Positions 1,991 to 57,370 of a DNA stretch of 64,000 nt are shown here, piece after piece. This DNA is from Deltaproteobacteria bacterium (lineage in GTDB: Bacteria; Desulfobacterota; Desulfobacteria; Desulfobacterales; UBA2156). Made by a program: the position numbers and the translations under genes. The notes under the pieces were generated by a model. The model was given only the letters and a program-made list of their open reading frames with translations. It was not told the origin of the DNA and did no database searches. The DNA lies in contig JAFDGC010000002.1 of the NCBI GenBank assembly GCA_019309485.1, positions 2,328-66,327 on the forward strand, read 5' to 3'. Numbering within the stretch: position 1 is the stretch's first letter; each line of letters starts with the position of its first letter.

Positions 1991-2176
1991 ACGGCGCCGG
2001 CGTCTCGCGACGGTTCCTTCAAGAATCCTTGAAGAAACGACTGTAAAAAGGCTTTTGTGCGCGTCGTTCACGCCTTTCCGGAAAAAGAGAGACAATGGGT
2101 TGCGGTGCGAATAAAATCCGCCTCTTTACGATCCCATCAAAAGTACGACACCTCAAAACACCGAAAAAGGAAAAAA

Positions 2177-4910: not shown

Positions 4911-6445
<1,535 letters not shown>

Positions 6446-6449
<4 letters not shown>

Positions 6450-8080
6450 GATTTTTCTCCTTGATAGGGTACGCCGCTTCCGTTCGCCGGCGAAACAGCG
6501 GAAAGCTTGTACTGAAAGCTGTCCTCCAGGGCCTTCCAGCTGGCCTCGATGATGTCTTTGGAGACACCGATGGTGCTCCAGATATGATCCCGGTCTCGGG
6601 AATCGATGAGGACGCGGACCTTCGATGCGGTGCCTTCCCGGCCGTCGATGACGCGCACCTTGAAATCCACCAGGTGCATGCCGTCGATCTCCGGGAAGAA
6701 CGTTTGCAAGGCCTTGCGCAGGGCGTTGTCGAGGGCGCTCACGGGACCGTCTCCCTCCGCGGCGGTGATCTCCTGTTTTCCGCCCACCGAAATCTTGATG
6801 GTGGCGTGTGCGGAACACGGTGCATCCCGGTTTTTTTCGATGGTCACCCGAAACGATTCCAGCTCAAACAACGGTCGGAACTGCTCCGTCAACTTCTGGA
6901 CCAGGATCCGAAAAGAGCCTTCCGCCGCATCGAACTCGTAGCCCTCCTGCTCCATTTCCTTGATCTTTGAGACGATTTTCCGGCTGTCGAATCCATTTCC
7001 CCCCAGATCGATCCCCAGTTCTTTCGCCTTGTATTCGATGTTGCTCTTTCCCGAAAGGTCCGAGACCAATACCCGCCGCTGGTTTCCCACGAGTTGTGGA
7101 TCGATGTGCTCGTAGGCGCGGGGATTTTTGGCCACGGCGCTGACATGGATGCCGCCCTTGTGGGCGAAGGCGCTCCTTCCCACGAAGGGACGGCTGTTGA
7201 GGGGGACGATGTTGGCCATTTCGCTTACGAAGCGGGATAACCGTTTGAGTCGCGTCAGGTTTTCAACGGGAACGCAGGGATAATGCATTTTAAGGGCCAA
7301 GACAGGGATGAGGGAGACCAGATCCGCGTTTCCGCAACGTTCCCCGTATCCGTTGATGGTTCCCTGGACCAAGGTGGCCCCCGCCCGTACCGCCGCAAGC
7401 GCGTTGGCCACGGCTAAACCGCAGTCGTTGTGGGTATGGATGCCCAGGATGAACGTATCTTCTGAAACGATCGGGCATTTTTCCGAAAGGCGGCAGCGCA
7501 CCTCGTGGATCACGGCCTCGATCTCGTGGGGAAGGGTGCCGCCGTTGGTGTCGCACAACACCAGGCGCCTTGCTCCCCCCTCCACGGCGGCAAAGAGCGT
7601 TTCCAGGGCATAATCGGGATTGTCTTTGTATCCGTCGAAAAAATGCTCGGCGTCGTAGATGATCTCCCGGCCGGCTTCCGAAAGATATGCCGTGGTGTCC
7701 CGGATCATGGCCAGGTTTTCCTGGGGGGTGTTTTGCATCACCTCTTTGACATGCAGGGTCCAGCTTTTTCCAAAGACGGCGACCACCGGTGTTCCGCTTT
7801 CCAGGAGCGCCTTTAAATTATCGTCGTCTTCGGGTCCGATTCCCGGCCGCCGCGTGGAACCGAAGGCCGTCAGCTTGGCGTTTTCAAAGCGGATCTCTTT
7901 GGCCATTTCGAAAAATTGCCGGTCCTTGGGGTTGGATCCGGGCCATCCGCCTTCGATGTAATGGATGCCGAATCGATCCAGGCTTTTGGCGATGGCCGCC
8001 TTGTCCGCGGCGGAAAAGTGGATGTTTTCCCCCTGGGTGCCGTCCCGCAGGGTGGTATCGTACAAAAGGATCGGTCTCAT
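6446..8080 (-). CDS. cimA: citramalate synthase / LeuA-family (CimA-type)
   Basis: ILLYDTTLRDGTQGENIHFS, GIHTHNDCGLAVANALAAV; about 540 aa long form with a C-terminal regulatory domain, resembling the Geobacter-type CimA class. Confidence 0.78.
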
Positions 8081-8094
8081 CGGGTGCCTCACTT

Positions 8095-24370: not shown

Positions 24371-25645
24371 ATGAATCGGCAATCTCCGGGGTACCGGTGG
24401 TTCATCTTCTGGATCATCGCGTTGGGGTATGTCTTGGTCTATTTTCACCGCCTGTGTCCGGCTGTCGTGGCGGTGGATATGATGCGGGATCTTCAGGCGG
24501 GAGGGGCGCTGATCGGGTTCTTGGGGGCGGCCTATTTTTATCCCTATGCCCTCATGCAACTTCCCGCCGGACTCTTGTCCGATTCCTGGGGGCCCCGGAA
24601 AACCATCACGTTTTTTTTCATTGTGGCCTTCCTGGGATCCTTGCTCCTGGGGATGGCGTCCTCGGTTTCCTGGGCTATCATCGGTCGCACCCTGGTGGGA
24701 TTCGGGGTGGCCATGCTCTTTGTGCCGGCCATGAAAATTCTGGCGGAATGGTTCACCAAAAAGGAGTTCGCCTTCATGACCGGAATCCTGATGGCCATGG
24801 GGGGGATCGGATCCTTGACTGCGGCCACTCCCCTGGCCCTTTTAAGCGCCGCCATCGGGTGGCGCATGTCCTTTGTGGCGGTGGGGGGGCTCACCCTCCT
24901 GCTGGCCCTTTTCGTATGGCTTTTCGTCCAGGATCGTCCCGATTCCGAAAATGATGTGACCCTCGCCGAAAAACGTGCCGAAGGCCCGGATGTCATCGGC
25001 CTGGTGGAAGGGATCCGGAGGGTGGTGAAAACCCCGGCGTTTTGGCCCCTTGCCGTATGGTTTTTTTTCGATTGCGCCGTATTCTTTTCCTTCGGCGGCC
25101 TCTGGGGCGGTCCTTACCTGATGCACCTTTACGGGCTGAGCCGGGATCAGGCCGGCGGCATCCTCTCCATGCTGGCGGTGGGGATGATCATCGGAAGCCC
25201 GTTTTTAAGCTTTATTTCCAGTTCGGTCTTTAAGGCCCGAAAGCCCGTCATTGTCTTGTCCAGCGTTCTGGTGTTGATCGGCACGGCCTTCCTTGCATTT
25301 ACACCGGATCGCATCCCCTTGTTGGGGCTCTATGGGCTTTGCCTCCTCTTGGGCGTCTTTTCCAGTGCCATTGTGGTGATCGGGTTTACGGCCAACAAGG
25401 AACTTTTTCCCATCAAAATCGCCGGTACGGCGACCGGGCTGGTGAATCTTTTTCCTTTTGCCGGCGGTGCCGTCTTCCAACCCATCCTGGGATACACCCT
25501 GGAACGCTACGGCCGCGTGGGAGGGGACGCCTTCACGGTGCAAGGATACAGCGGGGCGTTTACCATTCTTTTTATCTGCGCGGTCATCGCTTCTCTCTCG
25601 AGTCTTTTCATCAAGGAAACCCTGGGCCGAAAAGACGAGGCTTGA
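24371..25645 (+). CDS. MFS transporter
   Basis: 424 aa, about 12 TM; LPAGLLSDSWGPRK loop motif typical of MFS. Confidence 0.82.
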   Translation: MNRQSPGYRWFIFWIIALGYVLVYFHRLCPAVVAVDMMRDLQAGGALIGFLGAAYFYPYALMQLPAGLLSDSWGPRKTITFFFIVAFLGSLLLGMASSVSWAIIGRTLVGFGVAMLFVPAMKILAEWFTKKEFAFMTGILMAMGGIGSLTAATPLALLSAAIGWRMSFVAVGGLTLLLALFVWLFVQDRPDSENDVTLAEKRAEGPDVIGLVEGIRRVVKTPAFWPLAVWFFFDCAVFFSFGGLWGGPYLMHLYGLSRDQAGGILSMLAVGMIIGSPFLSFISSSVFKARKPVIVLSSVLVLIGTAFLAFTPDRIPLLGLYGLCLLLGVFSSAIVVIGFTANKELFPIKIAGTATGLVNLFPFAGGAVFQPILGYTLERYGRVGGDAFTVQGYSGAFTILFICAVIASLSSLFIKETLGRKDEA

Positions 25646-25920: not shown

Positions 25921-26367
25921 ATGAAACTCAAGCAGGTGTCCATTTCCATCGAGAATTCTCCGGCACGGCTTTACGAAGTCACCAAGGCCCTGGGAGATGC
26001 AGGGATCAATCTCAGGGCCCTGACGCTGGTGGAATCGGGCGCGGGGTTCGGGCTATTGCGGCTCCTCGTTTCCGACGTGGCCACCACACGGCGGATTCTG
26101 ATGAAAAAGCATATTCCGGCCCAGGTGAATGATGTGGTGGCCGCTGAAATGGAGGATAAACCCGGAAGTTTGGCCCGGATGCTCAAGCACCTCCTGGATG
26201 CCAAGATCCACACGATTTACATGTACGCCTTTACGGGTTTTTCATCCGAGAAGGCGGTCATGATTTTTCGTTTTACGGACAACGACAAAGCCGTTGAGGT
26301 TCTCCGGAAAAAAGGGGTCCAGGTCCTGGATGCCCAGACGTTCGGGATGCTGGAGGCGGAAAGCTGA
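25921..26367 (+). CDS. tandem ACT-domain protein
   Basis: 148 aa; SISIENSPARLYEVTKALGDAGINL and a second ACT-like half. Confidence 0.75.
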   Translation: MKLKQVSISIENSPARLYEVTKALGDAGINLRALTLVESGAGFGLLRLLVSDVATTRRILMKKHIPAQVNDVVAAEMEDKPGSLARMLKHLLDAKIHTIYMYAFTGFSSEKAVMIFRFTDNDKAVEVLRKKGVQVLDAQTFGMLEAES

Positions 26368-26373
26368 CGCCAA

Positions 26374-26432
26374 TGAACCGTAACAGCGAGCGCATTCCCC
26401 GCAGGTTCTGCCTGACGGCAGTGCTTCGCGGG
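26374..26432 (+). repeat. 59-nt repeat, copy A
   Basis: TGAACCGTAACAGCGAGCGCATTCCCCGCAGGTTCTGCCTGACGGCAGTGCTTCGCGGG matches the reverse complement of 48886-48944 at 55 of 59 positions. Confidence 0.85.
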
Positions 26433-26563
26433 CTGCAGGGAGGCTTCAATACCGGGGGTTTGCCTGGGATCCTAGAAGTGGTTTCAAAACCCCACCTGAG
26501 GCCCAATGGCTGCGTTGCAGGCCTCCGGGGAAGCGGCGGAAGTGGCGCCGGAAAGGAAGGGAA

Positions 26564-27511
26564 ATGAAAAACCAGACGACATTCGAGCCGCGCACTTTCG
26601 GGGTTATCGGTGCCGGACCGGTGGGATGCATCGTGGCGGCCTTCCTGGCAAGGGGGGGGTATGATGTGGCGTTGTGCGACGTCATCCCGGATCTCGTGGC
26701 GCCGGCAGCCGACCGGGGCATTATCATCGAAGGGGCGGAAACCCTCACCCAGCGGGTAAAGCAAACCTGCACCAGCGTGGATGAACTGGCCGGAATGGAT
26801 TGTGACGTGATTTTTATCACCGTTAAAGCCAACGCCCTTCCCCTCATCGTGTCGGCCATCGAAGATTTCCATCAGGAAGGAATGGTCGTGGTGAGCTGGC
26901 AAAACGGCATCGATACGGAGTTGGAGATCGCCGGGGTTCTGGGGAAAAACGCCTCCATGCGGGCGGTGGTCAATTACGGGTGCGGGCTGGCGGGGCCGGC
27001 CCATGTCAAAATGGCCTTCCATCATCCGCCCCATTTTATCCAGGAGCTTGATCCCGTCGCCAGGGAAGCTGCCGTGGCCATCGCCGGGGCGTTGACCCGG
27101 GGAGGCCTCGAAACCCGGCACACGGACCAGATCGTCTCCATGGTCTGGCGCAAGAGCATTATGAACGCTTCCATGAACCCGGTCTGCGCCGTCACCGGCT
27201 TGACCATGGCACAAGCCATGAACGATCCCATTATCTTTAACATCGTCGACGCCCTCGTGAAGGAATGCATCCAGGTGGCCCGTGCCAATGAAATTCCCCT
27301 GGGATGGGAATACTACACCCACGCCATGGATTACATGGGGCACGCCGGAGACCACAAACCCTCCATGTTGATGGATATCGAAAACCAGCGCCGCACCGAG
27401 ATCGATTTCATCAACGGCAAGTTCGTGGAATACGGGGACCGGGCCGGTATTCCAACGCCTTACAACACCACGTTGCGGTCTTTGGTCAAAGGTTTGGAGT
27501 CCAGATTTTAA
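26564..27511 (+). CDS. 2-dehydropantoate 2-reductase family (ApbA/PanE-like) oxidoreductase
   Basis: FGVIGAGPVGCIVAAFLARGG Rossmann motif; ...PSMLMDIENQRRTEIDFINGKFV is a KPR C-terminal-domain signature. Confidence 0.8.
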   Translation: MKNQTTFEPRTFGVIGAGPVGCIVAAFLARGGYDVALCDVIPDLVAPAADRGIIIEGAETLTQRVKQTCTSVDELAGMDCDVIFITVKANALPLIVSAIEDFHQEGMVVVSWQNGIDTELEIAGVLGKNASMRAVVNYGCGLAGPAHVKMAFHHPPHFIQELDPVAREAAVAIAGALTRGGLETRHTDQIVSMVWRKSIMNASMNPVCAVTGLTMAQAMNDPIIFNIVDALVKECIQVARANEIPLGWEYYTHAMDYMGHAGDHKPSMLMDIENQRRTEIDFINGKFVEYGDRAGIPTPYNTTLRSLVKGLESRF

Positions 27512-27563
27512 CCCTACCTGGGCATCTTTTTGGATTGGAATCGATGTGCGGACAAAGGAAGCC

Positions 27564-28394
27564 ATGAGCCCTCCACCGGCAAAGAACGCGGAAGCATCAC
27601 CCCTTTTCGTGGGCGTGGATGTGGGATCTTCCCGGACAAAAGTGGCGATCCTGGACGCGGCGCTGAACCTGATCGGTTACGATGTGCGGAAATCGGGGAC
27701 GGATTTTTCCTTGACGGCGGATGCGTGTCTGAAAAGAGCCCTGGGCATGGCGGGGCGAAAATCCGAAGACGTAGTCCACACCATCTCCACGGGGTACGGG
27801 CGAAAGAACGTGGCCTTTTCCAGGGAAACCCGCACCGAGATCGGCTGTCACGGAAAAGGGTGTTATCACTATTTCCCCCGGGCGGTTACGATCATCGATA
27901 TCGGGGGTCAGGACAATAAAATCATCAAGCTGGATGATGGAGGGCGCCGGCTCAGTTTCAAGATGAACCGCAAGTGTGCCGCCGGTACCGGCGCATTCCT
28001 GGAAGAAATGTCCGCCCGCCTGGACATTCCGCTGGAAGACATGGACGGCCTTGCCAGAAAGTCCAATGACATGGTGAAGCTCGGGAGTTTCTGCACCGTC
28101 TTTTCGGCCACGGAGGTTTTGGAAAATATTCGTGGGGGGAAAAAGATCGAGGACATCGTCAAAGGGCTCTTTTATTCGGTGATCAAACGGGTCCTGGAGA
28201 TGGATTCAATGACCGAAAATGTGGTCATGACCGGAGGCGTGGTGGCGCACAACCCCTATCTGGTGCAGATGACCGAAGAACAGATCGGACGGCCCGTCCT
28301 GATACCCCCGCATCCTCAGTTGACCGGGGCCGTCGGCGCCGCTCTCTATGCACTGGAAGCCGTGCAGGCGGGTGCCGCGGAGGAAAACAACTGA
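27564..28394 (+). CDS. BcrAD/BadFG/HgdC-type ATPase (acyl-CoA dehydratase/reductase activase)
   Basis: VGVDVGSSRTKVAILD, IIDIGGQDNKII, CAAGTGAFLE, VMTGGVAHNPYL: ASKHA-fold activase motifs. Confidence 0.82.
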   Translation: MSPPPAKNAEASPLFVGVDVGSSRTKVAILDAALNLIGYDVRKSGTDFSLTADACLKRALGMAGRKSEDVVHTISTGYGRKNVAFSRETRTEIGCHGKGCYHYFPRAVTIIDIGGQDNKIIKLDDGGRRLSFKMNRKCAAGTGAFLEEMSARLDIPLEDMDGLARKSNDMVKLGSFCTVFSATEVLENIRGGKKIEDIVKGLFYSVIKRVLEMDSMTENVVMTGGVVAHNPYLVQMTEEQIGRPVLIPPHPQLTGAVGAALYALEAVQAGAAEENN

Positions 28395-28477
28395 TCGCCG
28401 GTCGCACCGGTCGTGTTTTTATTCCACGGCGCGGCTGTCCGACGCCGGATCATTAAATACAGGGAAGGAAGGAAAGA

Positions 28478-29725
28478 ATGACACAGGAAAAAGAAATCGT
28501 GATTCGGCGGTTAAAAACCGCCAAGGATTTGGGAAAGTTCATGGCCGATTATTATTATGAGTTGGATGACGCCGCCAAGTCCGGAAAGAAAAAGGTCGCT
28601 TGGTGCACCAGTGTCGGACCGGCCGAAATCCTGAGAGGCATGGGATTCTTGACCTATTTTCCCGAAACCCATTCCGCCATGTTGGGAACCACCCGAATGG
28701 CTTCGGACCTGATTCCCAAGGCCAACGCCATCGGGTATTCGCCGGACATCTGTTCCTATCTCACCGCAGATATCGGTGCCTTTTTAGAAGGGGTGACGCC
28801 GTTGTCCCGGGCGTTTCCGGGCATCGAGAGCGTTCCGAAGCCGGATGTCCTGGTGTACAATACGAACCAGTGCCGGGATGTGCAGGACTGGTTTGCCTGG
28901 TACGCGGATCGCTTCGATGTTCCCCTGGTGGGAGTGGAAACCTACCGGAACGTTCCGGAGGTGACCCCGGCCCATATCACGTCCATTGCCAGACAAATGG
29001 AAAACATCGTGGAGCCTCTGGAAAAGGTGGCCGGCCGGAAGCTGGACATGGACGAATTCAAGAATGCCGTGGCCCTTTCCCGGGAGTGCTCGGATCTTTG
29101 GGAGAAATGCCTGGCGGCTGCCTCCGCAGTCCCGTCTCCTCTGACCTTCTTCGACGGGACCACCCTCATGGGGCCCGCGGTGGTGGGGCGGGGAACCCGG
29201 AAAGCCATTGATGCCTATAATCTGCTCCTGGAAGAACTGGAAGAACGGATCTCTCAAGGGATCGGCGCCATCGAAAACGAGCGGTATCGGCTCTACTGGG
29301 AAGGAATGCCCATCTGGGGGCGGTTGAGCATGCACTCCAAGCTCTTTGCGGGACTCAACGCCAATGTCATCGCCTCCACCTACTGCAGCAGTTGGATCTT
29401 CACCGCCCTGGATCCGGCCGATCCATTTGAAAGCATGGCCCGGGCCTACACGGAGCTTTTTATCGTCCGATCCGACGATTACAAGGAAGAATACATCAAG
29501 AACAAACTGGAATTCTTCAAGTGCGACGGCATCATCTATCATGACGCCAAGACCTGCCCCAACAACACCAATTGCCGGTACGGGATGCCCCAGCGACTGG
29601 AGAAGAGGGCAGGCATGCCAAGCCTGGTCATCAACGGGGATCTCAATGACCTCAGGATGCTGTCGGACGAACAGACCAAGACCAACGTGGAAGCCTTCAT
29701 CGAGCAACTGGAAGAGCGCAAATAG
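28478..29725 (+). CDS. 2-hydroxyacyl-CoA dehydratase / benzoyl-CoA reductase B-C family protein, single subunit
   Basis: 415 aa; KKVAWCTSVGPAEILRGMG, SPDICSY, YHDAKTCPNNTNC match the HgdA/B-BcrB/C family; no second subunit gene adjacent. Confidence 0.72.
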   Translation: MTQEKEIVIRRLKTAKDLGKFMADYYYELDDAAKSGKKKVAWCTSVGPAEILRGMGFLTYFPETHSAMLGTTRMASDLIPKANAIGYSPDICSYLTADIGAFLEGVTPLSRAFPGIESVPKPDVLVYNTNQCRDVQDWFAWYADRFDVPLVGVETYRNVPEVTPAHITSIARQMENIVEPLEKVAGRKLDMDEFKNAVALSRECSDLWEKCLAAASAVPSPLTFFDGTTLMGPAVVGRGTRKAIDAYNLLLEELEERISQGIGAIENERYRLYWEGMPIWGRLSMHSKLFAGLNANVIASTYCSSWIFTALDPADPFESMARAYTELFIVRSDDYKEEYIKNKLEFFKCDGIIYHDAKTCPNNTNCRYGMPQRLEKRAGMPSLVINGDLNDLRMLSDEQTKTNVEAFIEQLEERK

Positions 29726-29753
29726 GCATCGGTGGAGAAGGGGAGGAAAAGTT

Positions 29754-31832
29754 ATGTTGGATGCACTGTTTCGACCCAAGGCGGTGGCCGTCATCGGCGC
29801 ATCGAGTAAGGAGTTATCCATCGGAAACCGAATCATCAAGAACTTGATGGACTTCGGATTCAAAGGCGCTGTATACCCCATCAACCCCAAGGCCGATGAA
29901 ATCCGGGGCCTCAAGGCCTATCCATCCATTCTCGAGTGTCCAGGGGAGGTGGATGTGGTGCATATGGTGATACCGGCCAAGTTCGTCCCCCAGGCCGTGG
30001 AAGACTGCGGGAAGAAAGGGGTCAAGCATATCATCATCAATTCCGGAGGTTTTTCCGAGACCGGACCGGAAGGGGCGGCCATCGAAAAGGATTTCCTGGA
30101 ACGGGCCAAAACATACGGCATCCGGATCTTCGGACCCAACTGCCAGGGCATCATCAACTCGGATCCGGAAATCCGGGCCTACTGCAATTTCACCTTCACC
30201 ATGCCCAATCCGGGATACATTTCCATCGTGGCCTTGAGCGGCGGGGTGGCCGAGGTCATTCATCAAGGGTTTTCCGAAATGGGGGTCGGGACCCGGATTT
30301 ATGCCTCCAACGGGAACGCCTGCGACGTCACCATCCCGGAGATCATCCAATACCTGGGCCAGGATTCAGGGACGCGGGTCATCGTGACTTATGTGGAGGG
30401 CCTGCGGGACCCGGCCAATTTCATGCAGACGGTCCGGGAGGTGGCGGCGAAAAAACCGATTCTGGCCATGAAGGCCGGGCGGACCAAGGAAGGCGCCAAG
30501 GCCGCAGCCTCCCACACCGGCGGGATGGCCAAGGAAGACATGGCCACGGACCTGATTTTTAAAAAGGCGGGGGTCGTGGATTTCCGGGACGAAGGGGAAC
30601 TGATCCAGGCCGCCGTGGCCTTTGCTTCCCAACCCATTCCCAGGGGCAACCGGGTGGGGATCATTACCAACACCGGGGGCCCGGCGGTCATCGCCACGGA
30701 CGTCCTCGTGGGCGCCGGCCTGACGCTGCCCCCCCTTTCCGAAAAGACGGCCGCTTTCCTCAAGGAAAGGCTGTATCCCGAGGCTTCCGTGGGGAACCCC
30801 GTGGATGTGTTGGCCACCGGTACCGCGGCCCATTACCGGGCATGCATGGACGCCATGATGGAAGACGACGCCTTTGATTGCGTCTTTGTCAATTTTGTCA
30901 CCCCGTTTTTCGTGGATAACGAAAGCATCGCCAAGGAAATCGTGGCGGTGAGTCAACAACAGAAAAAACCCATTGTCTGCAACCTCATGACGGACCGCCG
31001 GCAGTGGACGGACGTAGTCCGGATTCTGCAGGAAGGCGGCGTTCCCTGCTTTTCCCTGCCGGGGGCGGCGGCCCGGGCCATGGCGGCCCTGGTGCGCTAC
31101 CATGCCATCCGGAACCGGGAACCCGGGGAAGTGCCGCCTTTCGTCGATGTGGACGCCAGGACCGCCCGCGAAGTCCTGAAAAAAGCGGCGGGGACCGAAG
31201 GCTTTTTGGCATCCGAGGCCGTTTGCGAGATCTTGGGCGCATACCGGATCCCCGTGGCGCCGTGGCGCGTGGCGGCGGATGCCCAGGCGGCGGTGAAGGC
31301 TGCCGACGCAATCGGCTACCCGGTGGTGGTTAAGGCGGAAGCCCCTTCCATCATCCACAAGAGCGACATGGGGGGTGTTGCCCTGGATCTGGGCGACGCC
31401 GAATCCGTCCGGTCCGCCGTGGAAGGGATGCAACGCCGCCTGCAGGCGGAAAATCTGCGCTTTTTCGTCCAAAAATACCTGCCCAAAGGCCTGGAGGTCA
31501 TCCTGGGCGCCAAGGCGGAAGAGGGCTTGGGACACATCGTCATGTTCGGGCTGGGCGGCATCTATGTGGAAATCATGAAGGATGTGGTCTTCAACCTGAC
31601 GCCGGTCACGACGGCGGAGGCCGGGGAGATGCTTTCCGGCATCAAGGGCAAGGCCCTGCTGGAAGGGGTACGGGGTCAGGCGGGCGTGGATCAAAAAGCC
31701 CTTCAAGATTTAATCCTCCGGGTTTCGAAGCTCGTCTCGGACCTGCCCGAGATCGAAGAGATGGACTTGAATCCCGTCATCGCTTATGAAACCGGAGCGT
31801 TCGTCGCCGATGCACGGATCCGCATAAAGTAA
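29754..31832 (+). CDS. ADP-forming acyl-CoA synthetase, fused alpha-beta (second paralog)
   Basis: MLDALFRPKAVAVIGAS...; ATP-grasp GYPVVVKAEAPSIIHKSDMGGV; GGAGG RBS before ATG 29754. The ORF extension to 29346 overlaps the upstream gene. Confidence 0.85.
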   Translation: MLDALFRPKAVAVIGASSKELSIGNRIIKNLMDFGFKGAVYPINPKADEIRGLKAYPSILECPGEVDVVHMVIPAKFVPQAVEDCGKKGVKHIIINSGGFSETGPEGAAIEKDFLERAKTYGIRIFGPNCQGIINSDPEIRAYCNFTFTMPNPGYISIVALSGGVAEVIHQGFSEMGVGTRIYASNGNACDVTIPEIIQYLGQDSGTRVIVTYVEGLRDPANFMQTVREVAAKKPILAMKAGRTKEGAKAAASHTGGMAKEDMATDLIFKKAGVVDFRDEGELIQAAVAFASQPIPRGNRVGIITNTGGPAVIATDVLVGAGLTLPPLSEKTAAFLKERLYPEASVGNPVDVLATGTAAHYRACMDAMMEDDAFDCVFVNFVTPFFVDNESIAKEIVAVSQQQKKPIVCNLMTDRRQWTDVVRILQEGGVPCFSLPGAAARAMAALVRYHAIRNREPGEVPPFVDVDARTAREVLKKAAGTEGFLASEAVCEILGAYRIPVAPWRVAADAQAAVKAADAIGYPVVVKAEAPSIIHKSDMGGVALDLGDAESVRSAVEGMQRRLQAENLRFFVQKYLPKGLEVILGAKAEEGLGHIVMFGLGGIYVEIMKDVVFNLTPVTTAEAGEMLSGIKGKALLEGVRGQAGVDQKALQDLILRVSKLVSDLPEIEEMDLNPVIAYETGAFVADARIRIK

Positions 31833-31845
31833 AAGGAGATCGGAA

Positions 31846-33405
31846 ATGGCTTCCTGGATGAATCTGGGACAGAATCTCAAAGTCAACGCCAAAAAATTTC
31901 CGAATACCGTCGCCCTCAAAGACGCCCGCCGGAGTTTCACCTATCCCATGGTCAACCGCCGGGTGAACCGGCTGGCCCACAGCCTGCTTTCCATGGGATT
32001 GACAAAAGGCGACAAAGCGGCGGTTTTGATGGAAAACAGCATTGAAATCGTGGAGATGTACCTGGCCTGCGCCAAGACCGGGATTATCATCGTTCCGATC
32101 AATTTTCGACTGGTGAGCCAGGAAGTGGCCTACATCCTGGAAAATTCGGACGCCAAGGCCCTCATCGTGCACGATCAGTTCGTCGACATCGTGGCGCCCC
32201 TCCGGGCGGACTTGACGGCGATATTGCCGGAGCGCTACGTGGTGGTGGGAGAGGAAAAAGAGGGGTACCTTTCTTACGAAACGTGGATCGCCGACGCTCC
32301 CGAGACCGAGCCGGACGTTCGCGTGGACCCGGAAGACACCTGGATCCTCATTTATACGTCGGGCACCACGGGAAGACCCAAAGGGGTGTTGCGCTCCCAC
32401 CGGTCCCACATCGCCTTTTATCTCATTAACGGCATTGATTTCGGGTTTTCCCAGCACGACATCTGTCTCAACGTCATGCCCTTGTGTCACATCAACTCCA
32501 CCTACTTCACCTTCACCTTCACCTATATCGGCGCCACGGTCTATATCCACCCGGCCCAGTCCTTCAGGGCCGAGGAGATCCTGGAGATCATCGAACGGGA
32601 AAAAATCACCTTCATTTCTTTGATTCCCACTCATTACAACCTCATTTTGAACGTTTCCGAGGAAGCCAAAAAACGGGATGTGACTTCCATCCGAAAGCTG
32701 TTATGCTCTTCGGCGCCGGTGAGAAAGAGCATGAAATTGGCCATCATGGACTTTTTCCCCGGGGTGGAGTTGTATGAAGGATACGGCTCAACGGAAGCGG
32801 GGATCGTCACCGTCCTCAAGCCGGAAGACCAGATGCGCAAACTCGGATCCATCGGATATGAGTCCCTGGGAACCGACTTCGTCAAGATCCTGGATGATCA
32901 CGGGAATGAAGTCCCCGTGGGCCAGGTGGGGGAGCTTTATTCAAAGGGCCCCATGCTTTTCGACGGATACTACAAGCTCCATGAAAAGACCGCCGCATCT
33001 TTTCACGGAGAATGGTTTTCTGCCGGGGACATGGCGCGAAAGGATGCCGACGGATACTACGAGATTGTGGACCGGAAAGACAACATGATTATCACGGGTG
33101 GAGAACATGTCTATCCCAGCGAGGTGGAGGAGGTGGTGGGGAGCCACGAGTGTGTTTTCGATTGCGCCTGTATCGGGCTTCCGGATGAAAAGTGGGGCGA
33201 AAAGGTGGTGGCAGTGGTGGTCCCTAAACCCGGGGTTGGACCCGGCCGGATCGACGAACAGACCCTCATCGATTGCTGCAAGGACAAAATGGCGGGGTAC
33301 AAACGGCCCAAGCAGGTGATCTTCATCAAGCCTGAAGACATGCCCAGAACCCCCACGGGGAAGATTCTGCACCGCAAGTTAAAGGAAAAATTGACCCAGG
33401 GATGA
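31846..33405 (+). CDS. AMP-forming acyl-CoA ligase (ANL superfamily)
   Basis: IYTSGTTGRPKGV (A3), YGSTEAG (A5), GDMARKDADGYYEIVDRKD (A8), PRTPTGKILHRKL (A10). Confidence 0.87.
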   Translation: MASWMNLGQNLKVNAKKFPNTVALKDARRSFTYPMVNRRVNRLAHSLLSMGLTKGDKAAVLMENSIEIVEMYLACAKTGIIIVPINFRLVSQEVAYILENSDAKALIVHDQFVDIVAPLRADLTAILPERYVVVGEEKEGYLSYETWIADAPETEPDVRVDPEDTWILIYTSGTTGRPKGVLRSHRSHIAFYLINGIDFGFSQHDICLNVMPLCHINSTYFTFTFTYIGATVYIHPAQSFRAEEILEIIEREKITFISLIPTHYNLILNVSEEAKKRDVTSIRKLLCSSAPVRKSMKLAIMDFFPGVELYEGYGSTEAGIVTVLKPEDQMRKLGSIGYESLGTDFVKILDDHGNEVPVGQVGELYSKGPMLFDGYYKLHEKTAASFHGEWFSAGDMARKDADGYYEIVDRKDNMIITGGEHVYPSEVEEVVGSHECVFDCACIGLPDEKWGEKVVAVVVPKPGVGPGRIDEQTLIDCCKDKMAGYKRPKQVIFIKPEDMPRTPTGKILHRKLKEKLTQG

Positions 33406-33454
33406 CCGGGAATCCGGCGCCCGTCGAATCCATTTGAAACGAGGAGGACCGTTC

Positions 33455-34645
33455 ATGTTAAAGAAAGCATTTATTCCGTATCGGGGCTACTATTCAACGC
33501 CGTTCATCCGCTGGCAGGGGAGCCTGGCCAATGAAAACGCCATCTCCTTCGGCGCCGAAACCTCTAAAAGATGGCTGGCGTCCAAAAGCTGGGATCCGAA
33601 GATATTCGACTATGTCTTTTTGGGGTTGACGGTGGGCCAGCCCAAGATGTTTTACGGCGGCCCCTGGGCTTCGGCGCTTCTGGGAGCCGAGGAGACTCCG
33701 GGAATGCTTGTCAGCCAGGCCTGTTCCACCTCCACCACCTGTATTTTTCAGGCCGCCGTCGGCGTGGAAACCGGGCTCTATCAAAACGCCTATGCCCTTA
33801 TGACGGACCGCTGCTCCAACGGTCCCCACACGGTGTGGCCGAACCCCACCGGGCCTGGCGGACAGGTCATATCCGAAGACTGGGTCATGGATCATTTCGG
33901 ATTCGATCCCTGGGGTGGCACCTCCATGATCCAGACCGCAGAAAATGTGGTAAAGGAAACCGGAATCACCCGGGAGCAGTGCGATGCCCTTGCCCTGCGG
34001 CGCTACGAGCAATACAAAGACGCTCTGGAGGATGGCCGGGCCTTCCAGAAACGCTACATGTTCCCGGTGGAGGTGAGGATCTCCAAAAAGAAAACCCTTA
34101 CAATAGAAGCCGATGAAGGGGTCATTGAAACCACAGCCGAGGGACTGGCGGCCCTGAAGCCCGTGCTACCGGGGGGCGCCCACACCTTCGGCGCCCAGAC
34201 GCACCCGGCGGACGGTCACTGCGCCGTCATTGTTACCGGCTACGAGAAAGCCCAGGAACTCAGCGCGGACAAATCCATTAACATTCAGGTCGTCTCCTAC
34301 GGCTACGCACGGGCCAAGAAAGCCCACATGGCCATGGCGGTGCTTCCGGCCGCCAAAATGGCACTCGATAACGCCGGGCTTTCCATCGGCGACATCAAGG
34401 TCCTCAAGACTCATAATCCTTTTGCGGCCAACGATATTTATCTTGCCGATCAGATGGGGATCGACGTCAACGGATTCAACAACTACGGAAGTTCCCTGGT
34501 ATATGGTCATCCCCAGGCGCCCACGGCGGGGCGTTTGATCATCGAAGGCATCGAGGAAGCGGTCCTTTTGGGCGGCGGCTACGTTCTTTTTACCGGTTGC
34601 GCGGCGGGTGACACCGGCGCCGCGATGGTGTTGAAGGTGGAATAA
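33455..34645 (+). CDS. thiolase-family acetyl-CoA C-acyltransferase-like protein
   Basis: Catalytic triad contexts SQACSTS, HNPFA and GCAAGD; GAGGAGG RBS before ATG 33455. Confidence 0.83.
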   Translation: MLKKAFIPYRGYYSTPFIRWQGSLANENAISFGAETSKRWLASKSWDPKIFDYVFLGLTVGQPKMFYGGPWASALLGAEETPGMLVSQACSTSTTCIFQAAVGVETGLYQNAYALMTDRCSNGPHTVWPNPTGPGGQVISEDWVMDHFGFDPWGGTSMIQTAENVVKETGITREQCDALALRRYEQYKDALEDGRAFQKRYMFPVEVRISKKKTLTIEADEGVIETTAEGLAALKPVLPGGAHTFGAQTHPADGHCAVIVTGYEKAQELSADKSINIQVVSYGYARAKKAHMAMAVLPAAKMALDNAGLSIGDIKVLKTHNPFAANDIYLADQMGIDVNGFNNYGSSLVYGHPQAPTAGRLIIEGIEEAVLLGGGYVLFTGCAAGDTGAAMVLKVE

Positions 34646-34705
34646 CTCCATCAACGGAAAGGAAAACATCACCGATCCGGAGAGCCCCTCCCGTCAACAC
34701 CGGCA

Positions 34706-34885
34706 TTCATTCTTTCTGGTGGAGACCCGAACGCCGGGGTACAAGGCCATGAAGCTCCACGGAAAGACGGGGATCCGGGCTTCGGACACGGCCGAGGTGG
34801 TCTTCAAGGACGTCCGGGTTCCGGCGGAAAACCGGGCGGGGAGACAGGGGGAAGGCTTTCACCAGCTCATGGCCTTTTTCAATTA
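34706..34885 (+). pseudogene. acyl-CoA dehydrogenase remnant (middle-domain fragment only)
   Basis: SFFLVETRTPGYKAMKLHGKTGIRASDTAEVVFKDVRVPAENRAGRQGEGFHQLMAFFN* matches the ACAD beta-barrel domain; no start codon; the N- and C-terminal domains are absent. Confidence 0.75.
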
Positions 34886-34962
34886 AACCTTCGTCGGCAC
34901 ACCGGGTCCAAAACGGGTTGATCCGGAGTTTTAAAACCGAGCTTCAATTCACGGCCTTTGCA

Positions 34963-44566: not shown

Positions 44567-45772
44567 ATGGCCATTGCAGTCGTAGGAACCTTCGACACGA
44601 AAGCAAAAGAACACCTTTTTCTCAAAGGCCGGATCGAAGCGTACGGATACGATGTCTTCACCATTCATGTGGGCACCCGGCGGCCCGCGCCCTTTCCCGT
44701 GGACCGGGACATATACCGGGAGATCGAAAAAAAAAATCCGTCATTGCTTTCCCGCCGGGACCAGGCCATCGAAGCGGTGCGCACCCTTGCCCGCAAAACC
44801 GTTGCCGCCCTTTACCGGGAGGACCGGATCGAAGGGGTGATTTCGGCGGGGGGCGGCACCGGAACCCATTTGGGGACCGGTATCATGAAAGGACTTCCCA
44901 TCGGGGTGCCCAAAGTGATGGTGTCCACCGTGGCCGCCAAGGACATGGGTTCCGTGGTGGGGACCAAGGATATCACCATGATCCACAGCGTGGTGGACAT
45001 CTTGGGGATCAACAGCATTTCCGGCATGATTCTCGACCGGGCGGCCGGAGCGGTCTGCGGCATGGCAAGGGCCCGATGGAAACCCGAGCGCATTTCTAAA
45101 CGGATCGCCTTGACCTTTTTCGGATTCATCACCGAGGCGGCGGAGCATCTCAAGGATCGTCTCGAAAAATTGGGGTATGAAGTCATTCCCTTTCATGCCA
45201 ATGGCACCGGCGGAATGGCCATGGAAGAACTGGCCGGCGAAGGCGTTTTCGACGGGATCCTGGATCTGGCAACCCATGAATTTGCGGATGCGCTGAAAAA
45301 CGGATACTGCCGCGGAATCGGTCCGGAACGCCTGACGCCGCCTCGCGGAAAAAGCGTGCCCCGCCTTGTGGTGCCGGGGGGCCTCGACTGCGCGGTCCTG
45401 GAGTTCACCCGGGAATCGGTGCCCGAGATCTACCGGGACCGGAAGATCTTTTACTATGACTTCAGGAGTGCGGTTCGCCTGTCCCGGGAGGAAACCCGTT
45501 TGATCGCGGATCAGCTTTCGGAAAAGATGAACCTGAACCCCCGCGGGACCCTGCTTTTAATCCCGTCCCGAGGATGGTCCGAAGCGGACGGGGAGGGCGC
45601 CCCCCTGTATGATCCTGAAGTTGCGTCCGCGTTTGTCAAGCGAATGAGCGAAACCCTGGATCCGCGTATCGAGATCCAAGAAGCGGATCTGCACATCAAC
45701 GAGGCGGCGTTTGCGGATCTGGCAGCCCAAACCATGGACGCCATGGTGAAACGAGGCGCTCTTTCCCGGTGA
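44567..45772 (+). CDS. UPF0261 / Tm-1-like ATP-binding protein
   Basis: MAIAVVGTFDTKAKEHLFLKGRIE N-terminus and about 400 aa length, as recalled for UPF0261. Confidence 0.72.
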   Translation: MAIAVVGTFDTKAKEHLFLKGRIEAYGYDVFTIHVGTRRPAPFPVDRDIYREIEKKNPSLLSRRDQAIEAVRTLARKTVAALYREDRIEGVISAGGGTGTHLGTGIMKGLPIGVPKVMVSTVAAKDMGSVVGTKDITMIHSVVDILGINSISGMILDRAAGAVCGMARARWKPERISKRIALTFFGFITEAAEHLKDRLEKLGYEVIPFHANGTGGMAMEELAGEGVFDGILDLATHEFADALKNGYCRGIGPERLTPPRGKSVPRLVVPGGLDCAVLEFTRESVPEIYRDRKIFYYDFRSAVRLSREETRLIADQLSEKMNLNPRGTLLLIPSRGWSEADGEGAPLYDPEVASAFVKRMSETLDPRIEIQEADLHINEAAFADLAAQTMDAMVKRGALSR

Positions 45773-48944: not shown

Positions 48945-48990
48945 CGGCCGTGGGGTTGCACCGAATCTTTGACGGGTGCGGAGAAACGTC

Positions 48991-50907
48991 ATGCAAAGAC
49001 TCTTTTCATCGTTTCAGATTAAAGGACTTCATTTCAAAAATCGGATCGTCATGCCTCCACTTGCGTCTTTTCTCCTCGACCGGGACGGAACCGTCACGGA
49101 CAAGGCGGTGGAGCACTATCGCATGCGGGCCGCGGGCGGGCCCGCCATGATCATTATGGAGGCTTGTGCCGTCTCCCGGGAAGGCATCGTTTCATTCCAC
49201 CAGGCGCGCATCGATGAGGACCGTTTCGTGGAAGGGCTGTCCAAAATTGCCCGGGTGATCAAGGCGGAAGGGGCGATCCCTGCGGTGCAGATTCATCACG
49301 GGGGCCGACAGACTTCTGTCAAGGTTATCGGCCGCAACCCTCTGGCGCCGTCCCCCTTGCCGTGCCCTGCCATCCGGGGGGAAGTGGAGGCGCTCACCGT
49401 ATCCGGTATCCGGGAACTGGTGCAAAAGTTCGGGGATGCGGCGGTGCGGGTCCGGGAAGCGGGATTCGAACTCCTGGAACTCCACGGCGCCCACGGATAC
49501 CTCATCAACCAGTTTCTCTCTCCCTTTTCCAATATTCGACAGGATGCATACGGCGGAGACCTGGAAGGACGGACGCGTTTTGCAAGGGAAGTCCTTCAGG
49601 AGGTCCGGCGGCGCCTGGGACCGGATTTTCCCGTTTCCTTTAAAATTTCCGCCCAGGAGTTTGTTCCAAACGGGCTGACGCTTGAAGAGAGTATCGCCGC
49701 CTTGAGGATCTTGATTCCAGAGGGCATCGACATGGTGCAGGTCTCTGCCGGAAATGACGCGACCCCGGAATGGATATGCCAGCCCATGTTCATGAAGAAG
49801 GCGTGTCTGGCCGATTCGGCCCGGGCCGTGAAAAAGGCCGTGAACATCCCTGTGATGAGTGTGGGCCGTATCAATGATCCGTTCATCGCCGAAAGGATCA
49901 TCGCAGAGGAAAAAGCCGATCTGGTGTGCATCGGAAGGGGACTTTTGGCTGATCCGGAGATGCCCAAAAAGGCCAAAGAAGGCCGCTTCGATGACATCCG
50001 CACCTGCATTGCTTGTAATACCTGCATGGAATCGATTTTTAAAAAGGGACGCGTGGAATGTCTGGTGAATCCTACCCTGGGCCGGGAAAGGGAAATGGCT
50101 GTTATTCCCGCGAAACGGATCCGGAAAATCATGGTGGTGGGCGGCGGCCCCGGCGGAATGGATGCTTCCTTGGTGGCTGCCCAACGGGGGCATCGCGTGG
50201 ATCTTTATGAAAAGGGGCCGGTCCTGGGGGGACAGTTGATCCCGGGAAGCGCCACCTCCTATAAGAAAGAAATGCTCAGCCTGATCCGTTTCCAATCCAA
50301 ACAGATGCGCCGATACGGGGTGCGCGTGCATCTGAACCGGGAGATCCAATTGAAAGACGTCCTTTCTGAAAAACCTGACGTGGTCATTGTGGCCACCGGT
50401 TCACTTCCGGCAGTACCGCCCCTGGAAGGGATCGAACACGAGATCGTTTGCTCGTTTTCATCGGTTTTGGACGGGAAACGCCCGCCTCCCCGGGAAACAG
50501 TGGTCATCGGAGGCGGCCCCACCGGATGTGAAGTGGCCTTTCATCTTTCCGAACAGGGATGTCCCGTGACCGTGGTGGAAATGTTGCCCAAGGCCGGAAA
50601 AGGACTGGAGGCCATTACCAAAAAGGTCCTTTTCGAGAAACTTGCGGCAAACGGCGTTCGTTTTTTAACGGGATGCCGGCCCCTTCGCATCAGCACACAA
50701 GGTGTTTGGATAAAGGACGCAGAAGACGGAGAACGCTTTTTACCGGCCGGCCGCGTCGTATTGGCAACCGGCATCCGTCCCAATACCGTCCTTTACGACC
50801 GGATCAAGGACATGGGGTTCGAGGTTTACCGGATCGGGGACTGCCTCGAACCCCGTACCGCCAAAGACGCTATCCTGGAAGGCGCCCGTCTGGGTCGCGC
50901 CTTGTAA
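48991..50907 (+). CDS. Old-Yellow-Enzyme-family flavoprotein with Fe-S and FAD/NAD(P) domains (2,4-dienoyl-CoA reductase / enoate reductase-like)
   Basis: FKNRIVMPPL and HGAHGYLINQFLSP OYE motifs; CIACNTC...C cluster; VVGGGPGGMDAS dinucleotide fold. Confidence 0.85.
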   Translation: MQRLFSSFQIKGLHFKNRIVMPPLASFLLDRDGTVTDKAVEHYRMRAAGGPAMIIMEACAVSREGIVSFHQARIDEDRFVEGLSKIARVIKAEGAIPAVQIHHGGRQTSVKVIGRNPLAPSPLPCPAIRGEVEALTVSGIRELVQKFGDAAVRVREAGFELLELHGAHGYLINQFLSPFSNIRQDAYGGDLEGRTRFAREVLQEVRRRLGPDFPVSFKISAQEFVPNGLTLEESIAALRILIPEGIDMVQVSAGNDATPEWICQPMFMKKACLADSARAVKKAVNIPVMSVGRINDPFIAERIIAEEKADLVCIGRGLLADPEMPKKAKEGRFDDIRTCIACNTCMESIFKKGRVECLVNPTLGREREMAVIPAKRIRKIMVVGGGPGGMDASLVAAQRGHRVDLYEKGPVLGGQLIPGSATSYKKEMLSLIRFQSKQMRRYGVRVHLNREIQLKDVLSEKPDVVIVATGSLPAVPPLEGIEHEIVCSFSSVLDGKRPPPRETVVIGGGPTGCEVAFHLSEQGCPVTVVEMLPKAGKGLEAITKKVLFEKLAANGVRFLTGCRPLRISTQGVWIKDAEDGERFLPAGRVVLATGIRPNTVLYDRIKDMGFEVYRIGDCLEPRTAKDAILEGARLGRAL

Positions 50908-56468: not shown

Positions 56469-56482
56469 TACGCAGGCCTTTG

Positions 56483-57370
56483 TCAGGGGGACGGATAAAG
56501 GGATCGAAAGACATCCGGCCGGTTGGTGATGATGCCGTCGACATCCATTCCAACCAGGCGTGTGATGTCGTTTCGGTTGTCTGCAGTCCAGGGAAAAACC
56601 TGTATTTCGAGGCCTTGAGCCTCGGCAAGGGCCTGGGGCGTCAAGGAATCGAACCGGGGACCCCACCGCCGGCCCCCGAGGTGATGGATGATTTGTGGAA
56701 TGGAATGTATCTCCTCGCCAGGCAGACCGGATCTCTCGGAATCATTTTCGGAAATTGCGGACCGGATCTTTTCAAGGAAGTTGTCGGCATCAGATAAAAA
56801 GACCACCGGGATTTGGGGATACCGCTTCCGGCAATACACCAGTGCCCGCCAGTCAAAGGAGAGGATATGGGCCCGGGATAAAAAATCTTCGCTTTTCAAG
56901 ACCATTGCCACCGCTTCCACCATTTTCCCGGGATCGGGGGAAAGTTCAGGCGCTTCCGGGGAGGTCTTGATTTCCAGCCAAAGCCCGGTATGGGCGTCCT
57001 TGCGGCCTTTCAAAAGAGCGATGACTTCCGGAAGGGTGGGGATCCGTTCCCCGTCGGCAGGCTGCTGGTCGGGATACCGGCGGGCATACCCGGTGGAAGA
57101 TTTCAAGCGGCCTACATCATAAGATTTCAGTTCCGAAAGCGTCAGCTCCTTGATCGGCTTGAGCTCTTTTTCGGAAATCCAACGGCCGTCGGCAGTCCGG
57201 GTGATTTCCGGTTTGAGAGTGAAATCGTGGTGCACCACCACCTGTTGGTCGGCGGAGAGTTGGACGTCCATCTCGATCCCGTCCACGTTAAATTCCAGTG
57301 CTTTTCGAAACGCTGCCAGGGTGTTTTCCGGGGCCAACCCGGCTGCCCCCCGATGTCCCACAAGGATCAT
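56483..57370 (-). CDS. glpQ: glycerophosphodiester phosphodiesterase
   Basis: [17 protein letters not shown] and [19 protein letters not shown] motifs. Confidence 0.85.

Follow-up and report, generated by a model that had tools for sequence, protein, structure and literature searches.

A lone catalytic-type HGD-D protein and its activase in a conserved Desulfobacterota gene module: a putative single-subunit 2-hydroxyacyl-CoA dehydratase

The stretch of DNA analysed here (the window) comprises 64,000 nt of contig JAFDGC010000002.1 from a deltaproteobacterium of the order Desulfobacterales (assembly GCA_019309485.1). It carries a plus-strand gene cluster in which a single 415-aa protein of the HGD-D family (28478-29725, +; PF06050, E 3e-62) is encoded next to an ATP-dependent [4Fe-4S] activase, or archerase, of the HgdC/HadI family (BcrAD_BadFG; 27564-28394, +; PF01869, E 5e-48), together with genes for a PanE-type 2-oxoacid reductase, an ADP-forming acyl-CoA synthetase, an AMP-forming CoA ligase and a thiolase. 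On balance, and by a modest measure, we consider it probable that this cluster is a catabolic module of Desulfobacterota which turns 2-oxo or 2-hydroxy acids into 2-enoyl-CoA by radical dehydration, most likely with aryl substrates and in the oxidative direction. Gene content, family assignments, a catalytic-type residue signature, the lack of a nearby beta-subunit gene, conserved synteny and clade structure were observed directly; homodimer formation, dehydratase activity, an aromatic substrate and the oxidative direction are what we infer from them.

The sequence and predicted structure of the 415-aa protein indicate a catalytic (alpha/BzdO-type) subunit built for acyl-CoA binding at a single cubane, and it is regarded here as a putative 2-hydroxyacyl-CoA dehydratase (HAD). 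It matched the alpha subunit HadB over its full length with about 30% identity (E 4e-54 with the single sequence, 8e-63 with the family profile), followed by the catalytic subunits MbdO (1e-35) and BzdO (5e-26) of class I benzoyl-CoA reductases (BCRs). The alignment with the double-cubane-cluster protein (DCCP) was confined to the C-terminal half (E 6e-6), and the supporting-type subunits HadC, BzdN and MbdN were not matched by this search even at E<10. The AlphaFold model (pLDDT 79.6, pTM 0.82) gave the same ranking, with template modelling (TM) scores of 0.88-0.91 to HadB, 0.84 to MbdO, 0.83 to BzdO and 0.75 to DCCP, and with MbdN (0.71), HadC (0.68-0.70) and BzdN (0.68) at the lower end. 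Among the NCBIfam models the HadB equivalog was the nearest, yet the protein scored 225 bits against a cutoff of 750; the BCR model TIGR02260 gave 147 bits (cutoff 487), with TIGR03191 likewise far under its cutoff, and the DCCP equivalog NF040772 gave 62 bits (cutoff 350).

The cysteines of the protein are at positions 43, 92, 132, 204, 303, 360 and 366. Mapping them onto known cluster ligands, as the earlier note on this DNA had proposed, equated C92, C132 and C360, which are invariant in 193 family sequences, with Cys95, Cys128 and Cys380 of BzdO, the three ligands of its catalytic [4Fe-4S]-OH2 cluster (PMC11971306). Also invariant in the 193 sequences are W42, E63, Y94 and Y302, aligning with Trp46, Glu65, Tyr97 and Tyr298 of BzdO, which fill the space of the lost distal subcluster, act as acid/base and, in the case of the tyrosines, hydrogen-bond the thioester oxygen (PMC11971306). 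The position of the BCR-specific His131 of BzdO is occupied by Val135. Two further cysteines, C43 and C303, match by position Cys36 and Cys293 of BzdN, which belong to its three distal-subcluster ligands, and C303 also aligns with a cysteine of DCCP. Among representatives clustered at 50% identity, the C43/C303 pair is a signature of the clade of lone-subunit proteins described below, whereas in canonical alpha subunits the two positions are occupied by V/I/L/S and T/P/S. Since C43 comes directly after W42 and C303 directly after Y302, both should line the acyl pocket; judging from the alignment, we read them as retained vestiges or functional pocket thiols. Three more distant family members (P0127, P0141 and P0147; 31-40% identity) have lost the cluster cysteines, with Ser, Gly, Gln or Asn at positions 92, 132 and 360; in two of them the N-terminus is extended by 180-360 aa, and all look like non-catalytic or repurposed HGD-D domains.

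A lone HGD-D gene beside a single ATPase gene is also the arrangement of DCCP and its reductase DCCP-R (Carboxydothermus hydrogenoformans; PDB 6ENO, 7YYL), and the earlier note had therefore considered an ATP-driven low-potential reduction in place of a dehydration. In a DCCP-like or BCR-like reductase of this kind, C43 and C303 would help to bind a larger or second Fe-S cluster, and cysteines do occupy five of the six double-cubane ligand positions, C43 and C303 being homologous in position to two distal-subcluster ligands of BzdN and DCCP. However, one distal ligand is missing, and the cysteine spacing does not fit the 7-Cys motif of DCCP (CX19CX18-19CX29CX166-170CX32-34CX32C), which supplies the six ligands of its [8Fe-9S] cluster (PMC7317905). 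The invariant W42 occupies the space of the lost subcluster, the thioester-binding tyrosines are retained, the His131 equivalent is Val, and the linked CoA ligase and 2-oxoacid reductase suit the logic of a dehydratase; we thus regard a non-dehydratase function as very improbable. Identity with DCCP itself was rejected on the absence of the motif, the NF040772 score, the fold ranking and the distant sequence match, and the double-cubane alternative of the earlier note did not hold up. Unlike DCCP, the window protein has CoA-binding features of the catalytic type. BCR identity was rejected as well: although BzdO and MbdO (PDB 8S02, 9G87) are the second-best neighbours and share the cluster ligands and the equivalents of Glu65, Trp46, Tyr97 and Tyr298, the His131 equivalent is missing, no BzdN-type partner with an [8Fe-9S] cluster is present, there is one ATPase gene instead of two, and the BCR models score under their cutoffs.

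The single HGD-D subunit remarked on by the earlier note proved to be real and conserved. Neither the 415-aa protein nor three beta-type subunits from loci L082, L089 and L090, used as tblastn queries, revealed a second HGD-D gene in the 64-kb window, and alpha and beta queries found no beta-type gene in 80 related loci totalling about 1.2 Mb, in which 10 kb on either side was inspected per genome. In two loci (L057 and L066) an ORF of cluster c61 lies between the activase and HGD-D genes; its product showed no HGD-D resemblance on reading and was not matched by the alpha or beta queries. Only one locus had two HGD-D matches (L075:2046-3263 and 6390-7368), both of the alpha type and about 75% identical to the window protein; the second copy is fragmented, and the pair seems to reflect duplication or misassembly instead of an alpha plus a beta subunit.

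A search of 1.84 billion representatives clustered at 50% identity yielded 1,744 relatives, 278 of them at E<=1e-30. In a neighbour-joining tree, calculated without support values, the family of the window protein groups with P0121, P0122, P0125, P0128, P0130, P0132-P0135, P0142, P0150 and P0189, and this group is sister to the HadB group; the tree places the 415-aa protein within no heterodimeric clade. The lone-subunit proteins form a deep clade in this tree. Eleven gene contexts were sampled: all 8 within the clade have a lone HGD-D gene, and all 3 outside it have an alpha gene paired with a beta gene. Within the clade, the orders are PanE, HGD-D, activase and AMP-ligase for P0150 (L088); PanE, HGD-D and activase for P0130 (L084); PanE, an intact acyl-CoA dehydrogenase (ACAD), HGD-D, activase and AMP-ligase for P0125 (L083); HGD-D and activase for both P0133 (L085) and P0142 (L087); and a synthetase plus a lone HGD-D for P0135 (L086). 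For P0122, from a metagenome-assembled genome (MAG) of Myxococcota, a 728-aa fusion of PanE and HGD-D (L081:8001-10187), whose HGD-D domain is 51% identical to the window protein, precedes the activase and a xanthine dehydrogenase (XDH)-family enzyme; the latter is encoded by Fer2, FAD_binding_5 and Ald_Xan_dh genes in a layout like that of 4-hydroxybenzoyl-CoA reductase (HcrCBA). Outside the clade, the orders are activase, beta and alpha (P0148, L082), alpha and beta (P0161, L089), and CoA-transferase, activase, alpha, beta and 2-Hacid_dh (P0236, L090). From this contrast, the PanE-type reductase and the ligase appear to go with the lone subunit as a set that stands in for the canonical operon. 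Given the ApbA/PanE fusion in L081, the CoA ester is also conceivable as the substrate of the reductase.

The lone HGD-D protein most likely works as an alpha2 homodimer, for which the homodimeric DCCP offers a precedent (PMC7317905), the likeness lying in the gene arrangement. The protein could instead be one half of a heterodimer after all, with a beta partner that is encoded elsewhere, possibly shared with another HAD/BCR system, and supplies the relay cluster. All characterised HADs and class I BCRs are indeed heterodimers (PMC7317905, PMC11971306), and a 2026 paper reports other HGD-like clusters in BzS1 besides a 'singular' FldB-like gene. On the other hand, neither the 80 loci nor the seven more distant clade members have a linked beta-type gene, although all three relatives examined outside the clade have one directly adjacent to the alpha gene; the PanE-HGD-D fusion with its activase is a self-contained unit, and DCCP shows that the HGD-D fold can serve its ATPase as a homodimer. 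We consider a distant beta partner rather unlikely, and retain the homodimer as the preferred form.

The module is widely conserved. A homolog search placed about 7,700 of 8,000 scored candidates at E<=1e-10, the top 120 at 75-100% identity, and a second search gave a similar picture of a large, tightly conserved family; altogether, thousands of database clusters at 70-100% identity belong to the clade, as do deeper branches down to about 33-45%. A scan of one genome per species found at least 561 relatives, and the best 80 loci (69-91% identity) were analysed. Their hosts are Desulfobacterales, Syntrophobacteraceae, Desulfobulbales-type isolates (Desulfoprunum benzoelyticum) and a few Anaerolineae, and include Desulfonema magnum, Desulfosarcina and Olavius symbionts. 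Counting for each gene only the loci with enough flank, so that denominators differ, the activase was found in 73/76 loci, PanE in 67/73, the orthologous AMP-ligase in 53/61, the ADP-forming synthetase in 46/71, the thiolase in 31/56 and the ACT protein in 20/68. Because it recurs in at least 70 genomes, the gene arrangement is conserved far beyond chance, and the survey of relatives suggested by the earlier note thus revealed strong synteny.

Clustering of all ORFs in these loci showed that most Desulfobacterales versions are longer than that of the window. Typically, the 5' part of the longer form encodes an SCPx-type thiolase, a DUF35/ChsH2-like protein, an enoyl-CoA hydratase (ECH) and a 3-hydroxyacyl-CoA-dehydrogenase/hydratase fusion or a zinc-dependent alcohol dehydrogenase; IorA, IorB, a PaaK-type ligase, PanE, activase, HGD-D, synthetase, ligase and thiolase follow in this order. 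IorA was present in 37/52 loci, IorB in 42/59, the PaaK-type ligase in 40/65 and ECH in 26/48. The IorA of relatives passes the equivalog model for indolepyruvate:ferredoxin oxidoreductase (IOR; 767 bits, cutoff 651), and their 448-aa ligase is closest to phenylacetate-CoA ligase.

Two groups of loci depart from this order. In three Anaerolineae MAGs (Chloroflexota; L052, L065 and L069) the module is rearranged to 3-hydroxyacyl-CoA dehydrogenase-ECH, HGD-D, synthetase, ligase, PanE and activase, with HGD-D about 70-73% identical to the window protein; its occurrence in Chloroflexota bins suggests horizontal transfer, or possibly mis-binning. In four Syntrophobacteraceae loci (L020, L022, L024 and L025) the order is AMP-ligase, ACT, PanE, activase, HGD-D and AMP-ligase, preceded by genes for a sodium:solute symporter, a cNMP/CBS/DUF294-type protein and an exonuclease-like protein, and IorAB is often nearby on the opposite strand.

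The view of the earlier note that the cluster follows the logic of the clostridial had and fld operons with non-canonical parts was borne out: the clade has PanE, an AMP-ligase, the activase and one alpha-type gene, as against CoA-transferase, activase, alpha, beta and 2-Hacid_dh in the canonical locus L090, and the family III CoA transferase and 2-Hacid_dh that usually supply a HAD are absent from the cluster. Compared with HadBC/HadI of Clostridioides difficile (PDB 3O3M, 4EHT), the HGD-D fold, the three-Cys [4Fe-4S] site and the conserved Glu and Trp are common to both, and the activases belong to one family (E 1e-54). The window, however, has no HadC-type beta subunit, a PanE-type enzyme replaces the LdhA-type one, AMP- and ADP-forming ligases replace the CoA transferase HadA, and the HGD-D protein has the additional invariant C43 and C303. 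In the heterotrimeric Fld, one component is a CoA transferase, and the system works reductively in fermentation. Going by the family and by a citation in the 2026 paper, the chemistry proposed here would resemble that of FldABC/FldI of Clostridium sporogenes (arylpyruvate to aryllactate, aryllactyl-CoA and arylacrylyl-CoA), but one subunit and ligases would carry it out, and the product would probably be oxidised further to benzoyl-CoA.

The direction assumed by the earlier note, reductive as in Stickland-type metabolism, was not supported. Such use would take a 2-oxoacid to the saturated acid via the enoyl-CoA, with ATP from the ADP-forming synthetase; this is the canonical role of had/fld operons, the synthetase is present in nearly two thirds of the loci, and an intact ACAD adjoins the lone HGD-D gene in L083. 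The window itself has an ACAD fragment of about 60 residues downstream of the thiolase gene (about 34710-34886, +; frame-2 translation), and the earlier note was right about this remnant but not about its belonging to the module. It matches only positions 56-97, the domain end, of the Acyl-CoA_dh_M profile (E 3e-6, under the gathering score), homology with the relatives ends at the thiolase stop codon, and it was rejected as a pathway part because none of the 80 related loci has a counterpart; it is local pseudogene debris outside the conserved module. Moreover, ETF genes and an enoyl-CoA reductase are not linked, and hydratase, 3-hydroxyacyl-CoA dehydrogenase and thiolases are linked instead, a thiolase having no role in a reductive route; the hosts are mostly sulfate reducers with an external electron acceptor. 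We therefore judge the reductive use unlikely. The usual partners, IOR, PaaK, hydratase, dehydrogenase and thiolases, indicate instead an oxidative beta-oxidation of arylacrylyl-CoA in sulfate reducers.

A cluster of like order, missed by the earlier note, had already been annotated in Desulfococcus multivorans in 2016 (Dorries et al., PMC5109826). Dmul_24830-24900 encode IorA3B3, an ACT protein (144 aa), a 'putative phenylpyruvate reductase' (319 aa), an 'R-phenyllactate dehydratase activator' (269 aa), a dehydratase 'subunit alpha' (416 aa) and FadD4 (518 aa), followed by a TRAP transporter, regulators, a thiolase, a dehydrogenase/hydratase fusion and Hbd5; only the alpha subunit is listed (PMC5109826). 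The proteins encoded in this region are formed specifically during growth with phenylacetate and phenylpyruvate (PMC5109826). Phenyllactate also supports growth of the strain, and the authors describe the route to benzoyl-CoA as 'unclear' (PMC5109826). They noted 'phenyllactate to phenylpyruvate' only, and discussed neither the missing beta subunit nor the benzoyl-CoA route. By architecture, the cluster corresponds gene for gene, IorA3B3 flank included, to loci L012 and L015. The window shares its gene order and product lengths, with the AMP-ligase in the position of FadD4 and the ACT protein likewise in place, but lacks the IOR, the second ligase, the TRAP transporter and the regulators.

The substrates are most likely arylpyruvate and aryllactate, phenyllactyl-CoA being converted to cinnamoyl-CoA and on to benzoyl-CoA and acetyl-CoA. 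Alternatively, the substrate could be aliphatic, such as 2-hydroxyisocaproyl-, 2-hydroxybutyryl-, lactyl- or 2-hydroxyglutaryl-CoA derived from branched-chain or other amino or hydroxy acids. The best solved relative of the HGD-D protein is the alpha subunit of 2-hydroxyisocaproyl-CoA dehydratase, 'lactoyl-CoA dehydratase subunit alpha' is the label given by some sources to family members found in our homolog searches, PanE of Lactococcus lactis reduces branched-chain 2-keto acids, and the window and Syntrophobacteraceae versions have no adjacent PaaK or genes for beta-oxidation of aromatic side chains. However, no HAD alpha subunit other than HadB has had its structure solved, and the structural ranking therefore says little about the substrate; where the flanks are long enough, most loci link IOR and PaaK-type genes to the module, phenylacetate and phenylpyruvate elicit a response of the D. 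multivorans cluster, and the fusion locus has the adjacent XDH-family enzyme with a domain layout like 4-hydroxybenzoyl-CoA reductase. An aliphatic substrate is accordingly doubtful in our estimation, and aryl substrates are preferred.

The proposed pathway would run as follows: i) a transporter of the major facilitator superfamily (MFS), encoded upstream, would import the acid, ii) the PanE-type enzyme would interconvert the 2-oxoacid and the (R)-2-hydroxyacid, iii) the AMP-forming ligase, which presumably activates the 2-hydroxy (or 2-oxo) acid, would make the CoA thioester, iv) the activase, at the expense of ATP, would transfer a single low-potential electron to the lone alpha-type HGD-D protein, at its [4Fe-4S] cluster, v) the HGD-D protein would eliminate water via a ketyl radical to give the 2-enoyl-CoA, and vi) the enoyl-CoA would enter beta-oxidation, for which the thiolase is encoded in the window and the hydratase and dehydrogenase beside the module in most relatives. 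The electron would go directly to the catalytic cluster of the alpha2 dimer, as DCCP-R does for homodimeric DCCP; with the HGD-D protein acting as such a dimer, no relay cluster of a beta subunit would be involved. The ADP-forming synthetase would interconvert acyl-CoA and acid with ATP, and may conserve ATP from IOR-made arylacetyl-CoA or reversibly activate acids.

If IOR ran in the carboxylating direction, it would link phenylacetyl-CoA to the aryl-lactate route: phenylacetyl-CoA and CO2 would give phenylpyruvate, phenyllactate, phenyllactyl-CoA, cinnamoyl-CoA and finally benzoyl-CoA plus acetyl-CoA. This route would account for every enzyme class induced in D. multivorans. In its broadest form, which we put forward tentatively and hold to be less probable than not, the proposal is that the lone-subunit proteins are a widespread monophyletic group of alpha2 dehydratases, intermediate between DCCP and HAD/BCR and with vestigial C43/C303, which together with PanE, to which they are sometimes fused, and reverse IOR make up the missing phenylacetate/phenylpyruvate/phenyllactate route to benzoyl-CoA in sulfate reducers.

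Several points weigh against an aryl-specific, single-subunit dehydratase module. Co-location with IorAB, a PaaK-type or second ligase and hydratase, dehydrogenase and thiolase genes, the mark of the aryl-acid catabolic cluster Dmul_24730-24900 of D. multivorans, holds for most related loci. The 64-kb window, however, contains no IOR, PaaK, hydratase or dehydrogenase genes, the thiolase alone being present, and the aromatic assignment is therefore borrowed from relatives. Correspondence with the D. multivorans genes was drawn from architecture rather than sequence, and no D. multivorans protein appears by name among the homolog-search matches listed. Syntrophobacteraceae are not known as aromatic degraders, though they carry the module. 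The inspection for beta-type genes covered the 10-kb flanks of each locus, and four cysteines besides the cluster ligands are strongly conserved as well (C43, C204 and C303 invariant, C366 97% conserved among the 193 sequences). A literature search found no biochemical characterisation of an enzyme of the lone-subunit clade. For a single-subunit HAD or an aryl-lactate route in sulfate reducers, it returned only the 2016 annotation and a speculative discussion in the 2026 paper mentioned above, in which the phenyllactyl-CoA dehydratase of sulfate reducers is still hypothetical.

The cluster as such was thus annotated before; new are the lone-subunit architecture as a conserved clade, the coupling to a PanE-type reductase including the fusion, and the candidate role in aryl-acid degradation. 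In the known HAD and BCR enzymes acting on CoA esters, all of them heterodimers, the second subunit carries an electron-relay cluster. A clade with the catalytic subunit only would show that the relay subunit is dispensable, and would offer a simpler two-protein system for the study and engineering of ketyl-radical dehydration. The module is also a gene-by-gene candidate for the conversion of phenylacetate and phenylpyruvate to benzoyl-CoA in D. multivorans without Pad enzymes, and would explain the induction of hydratase, dehydrogenase and thiolase on these two substrates.

Eight plus-strand features had been listed by the earlier note, each preceded by a Shine-Dalgarno (SD) sequence, and ORF listing and profile searches confirmed all of them in the order given. 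The first gene encodes a protein with a pair of ACT domains (25921-26367, +; PF19571 ACT_8, E 2e-19), presumed to be a small-molecule sensor or regulator and probably sensing a metabolite. It is followed by the gene for the PanE/ApbA-family NAD(P)-dependent 2-oxoacid reductase/2-hydroxyacid dehydrogenase (26564-27511, +; PF02558, PF08546), which passes the subfamily model TIGR00745 (193 bits, cutoff 141) but no NCBIfam equivalog model, that of 2-dehydropantoate reductase included; its PDB neighbours are entries of the ketopantoate-reductase family. For the activase, the longest ORF begins with GTG at 27546 and the SD-preceded ATG is at 27564; the protein scores 211 bits with TIGR00241 (cutoff 125), and its top PDB match is HadI (4eht, E 1e-54), with which the KCAAGTG and CTVF cluster motifs align.

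Downstream of the HGD-D gene lies the gene for the ADP(NDP)-forming acyl-CoA synthetase with fused alpha and beta domains (29754-31832, +; CoA_binding_2, Succ_CoA_lig, ATP-grasp_5), whose longest ORF starts from 29346, the SD-preceded ATG being at 29754; it scores under all NCBIfam equivalog cutoffs. The AMP-forming acyl-CoA ligase (31846-33405, +; PF00501, E 1e-89) has FadD5, feruloyl-CoA synthetase and anthranilate-CoA ligase among its PDB neighbours. The last intact gene encodes a divergent 3-ketoacyl-CoA thiolase (33455-34645, +; Thiolase_N, Thiolase_C; longest ORF from TTG 33434, SD-preceded ATG at 33455), with QACSTS, GHPQA and GCAAG motifs and 174 bits with TIGR01930, under the cutoff of 241. 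A purine-rich SD sequence precedes every start in the cluster, and the intergenic gaps, based on longest ORFs, are 196, 34, 83, 28, 13 and 28 nt.

The MFS anion transporter gene (24371-25645, +; PF07690, E 4e-55), which is not among the features in the earlier note, ends 275 nt upstream of the ACT gene and is preceded by an SD sequence. Its nearest NCBIfam subfamilies are galactonate, phosphoglycerate and lactate transporters, all under cutoff, and it adjoins the module in 3 of 59 loci, close relatives only; it probably belongs to the unit as an organic-acid uptake component. The genes downstream of the cluster are unrelated and on the opposite strand, e.g. one for a GMP-synthase-like PP-loop protein. 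A promoter and terminator scan was uninformative, with counts near those in shuffled sequence, and an Rfam search of the window matched no RNA family.

Other genes of the window are mentioned for completeness. A second NDP-forming acyl-CoA synthetase (759 aa; CoA_binding_2, Succ_CoA_lig, ATP-grasp_5) is encoded 25 kb upstream of the cluster (2057-4336, +), followed by a histidine-phosphatase-family gene. A 643-aa fusion of Old-Yellow-Enzyme and pyridine-nucleotide-disulphide-oxidoreductase domains (48976-50907, +) is of the 2,4-dienoyl-CoA reductase/enoate reductase type, which could reduce cinnamate-type enoates, with no established link to the cluster. A UPF0261 two-domain protein (44567-45772, +) is encoded after a 908-aa histidine kinase, and the chance-level matches of the PDB fold search included a UPF0261 protein with bound acetovanillone. 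On the minus strand are genes for a 785-aa molybdopterin oxidoreductase (54309-56666) and the beta subunit of a Na+-translocating decarboxylase (57453-58592; OAD_beta, E 3e-147); in strict anaerobes, such decarboxylases act on glutaconyl-CoA or methylmalonyl-CoA. Also on the minus strand, two consecutive HMGL-like/LeuA-dimer genes of the 2-isopropylmalate or citramalate synthase type (4911-8092) are followed by ilvC and the gene for the acetolactate synthase small subunit; since the longest ORFs of the two share about 370 nt, the downstream gene (4911-6818) probably has a later start.

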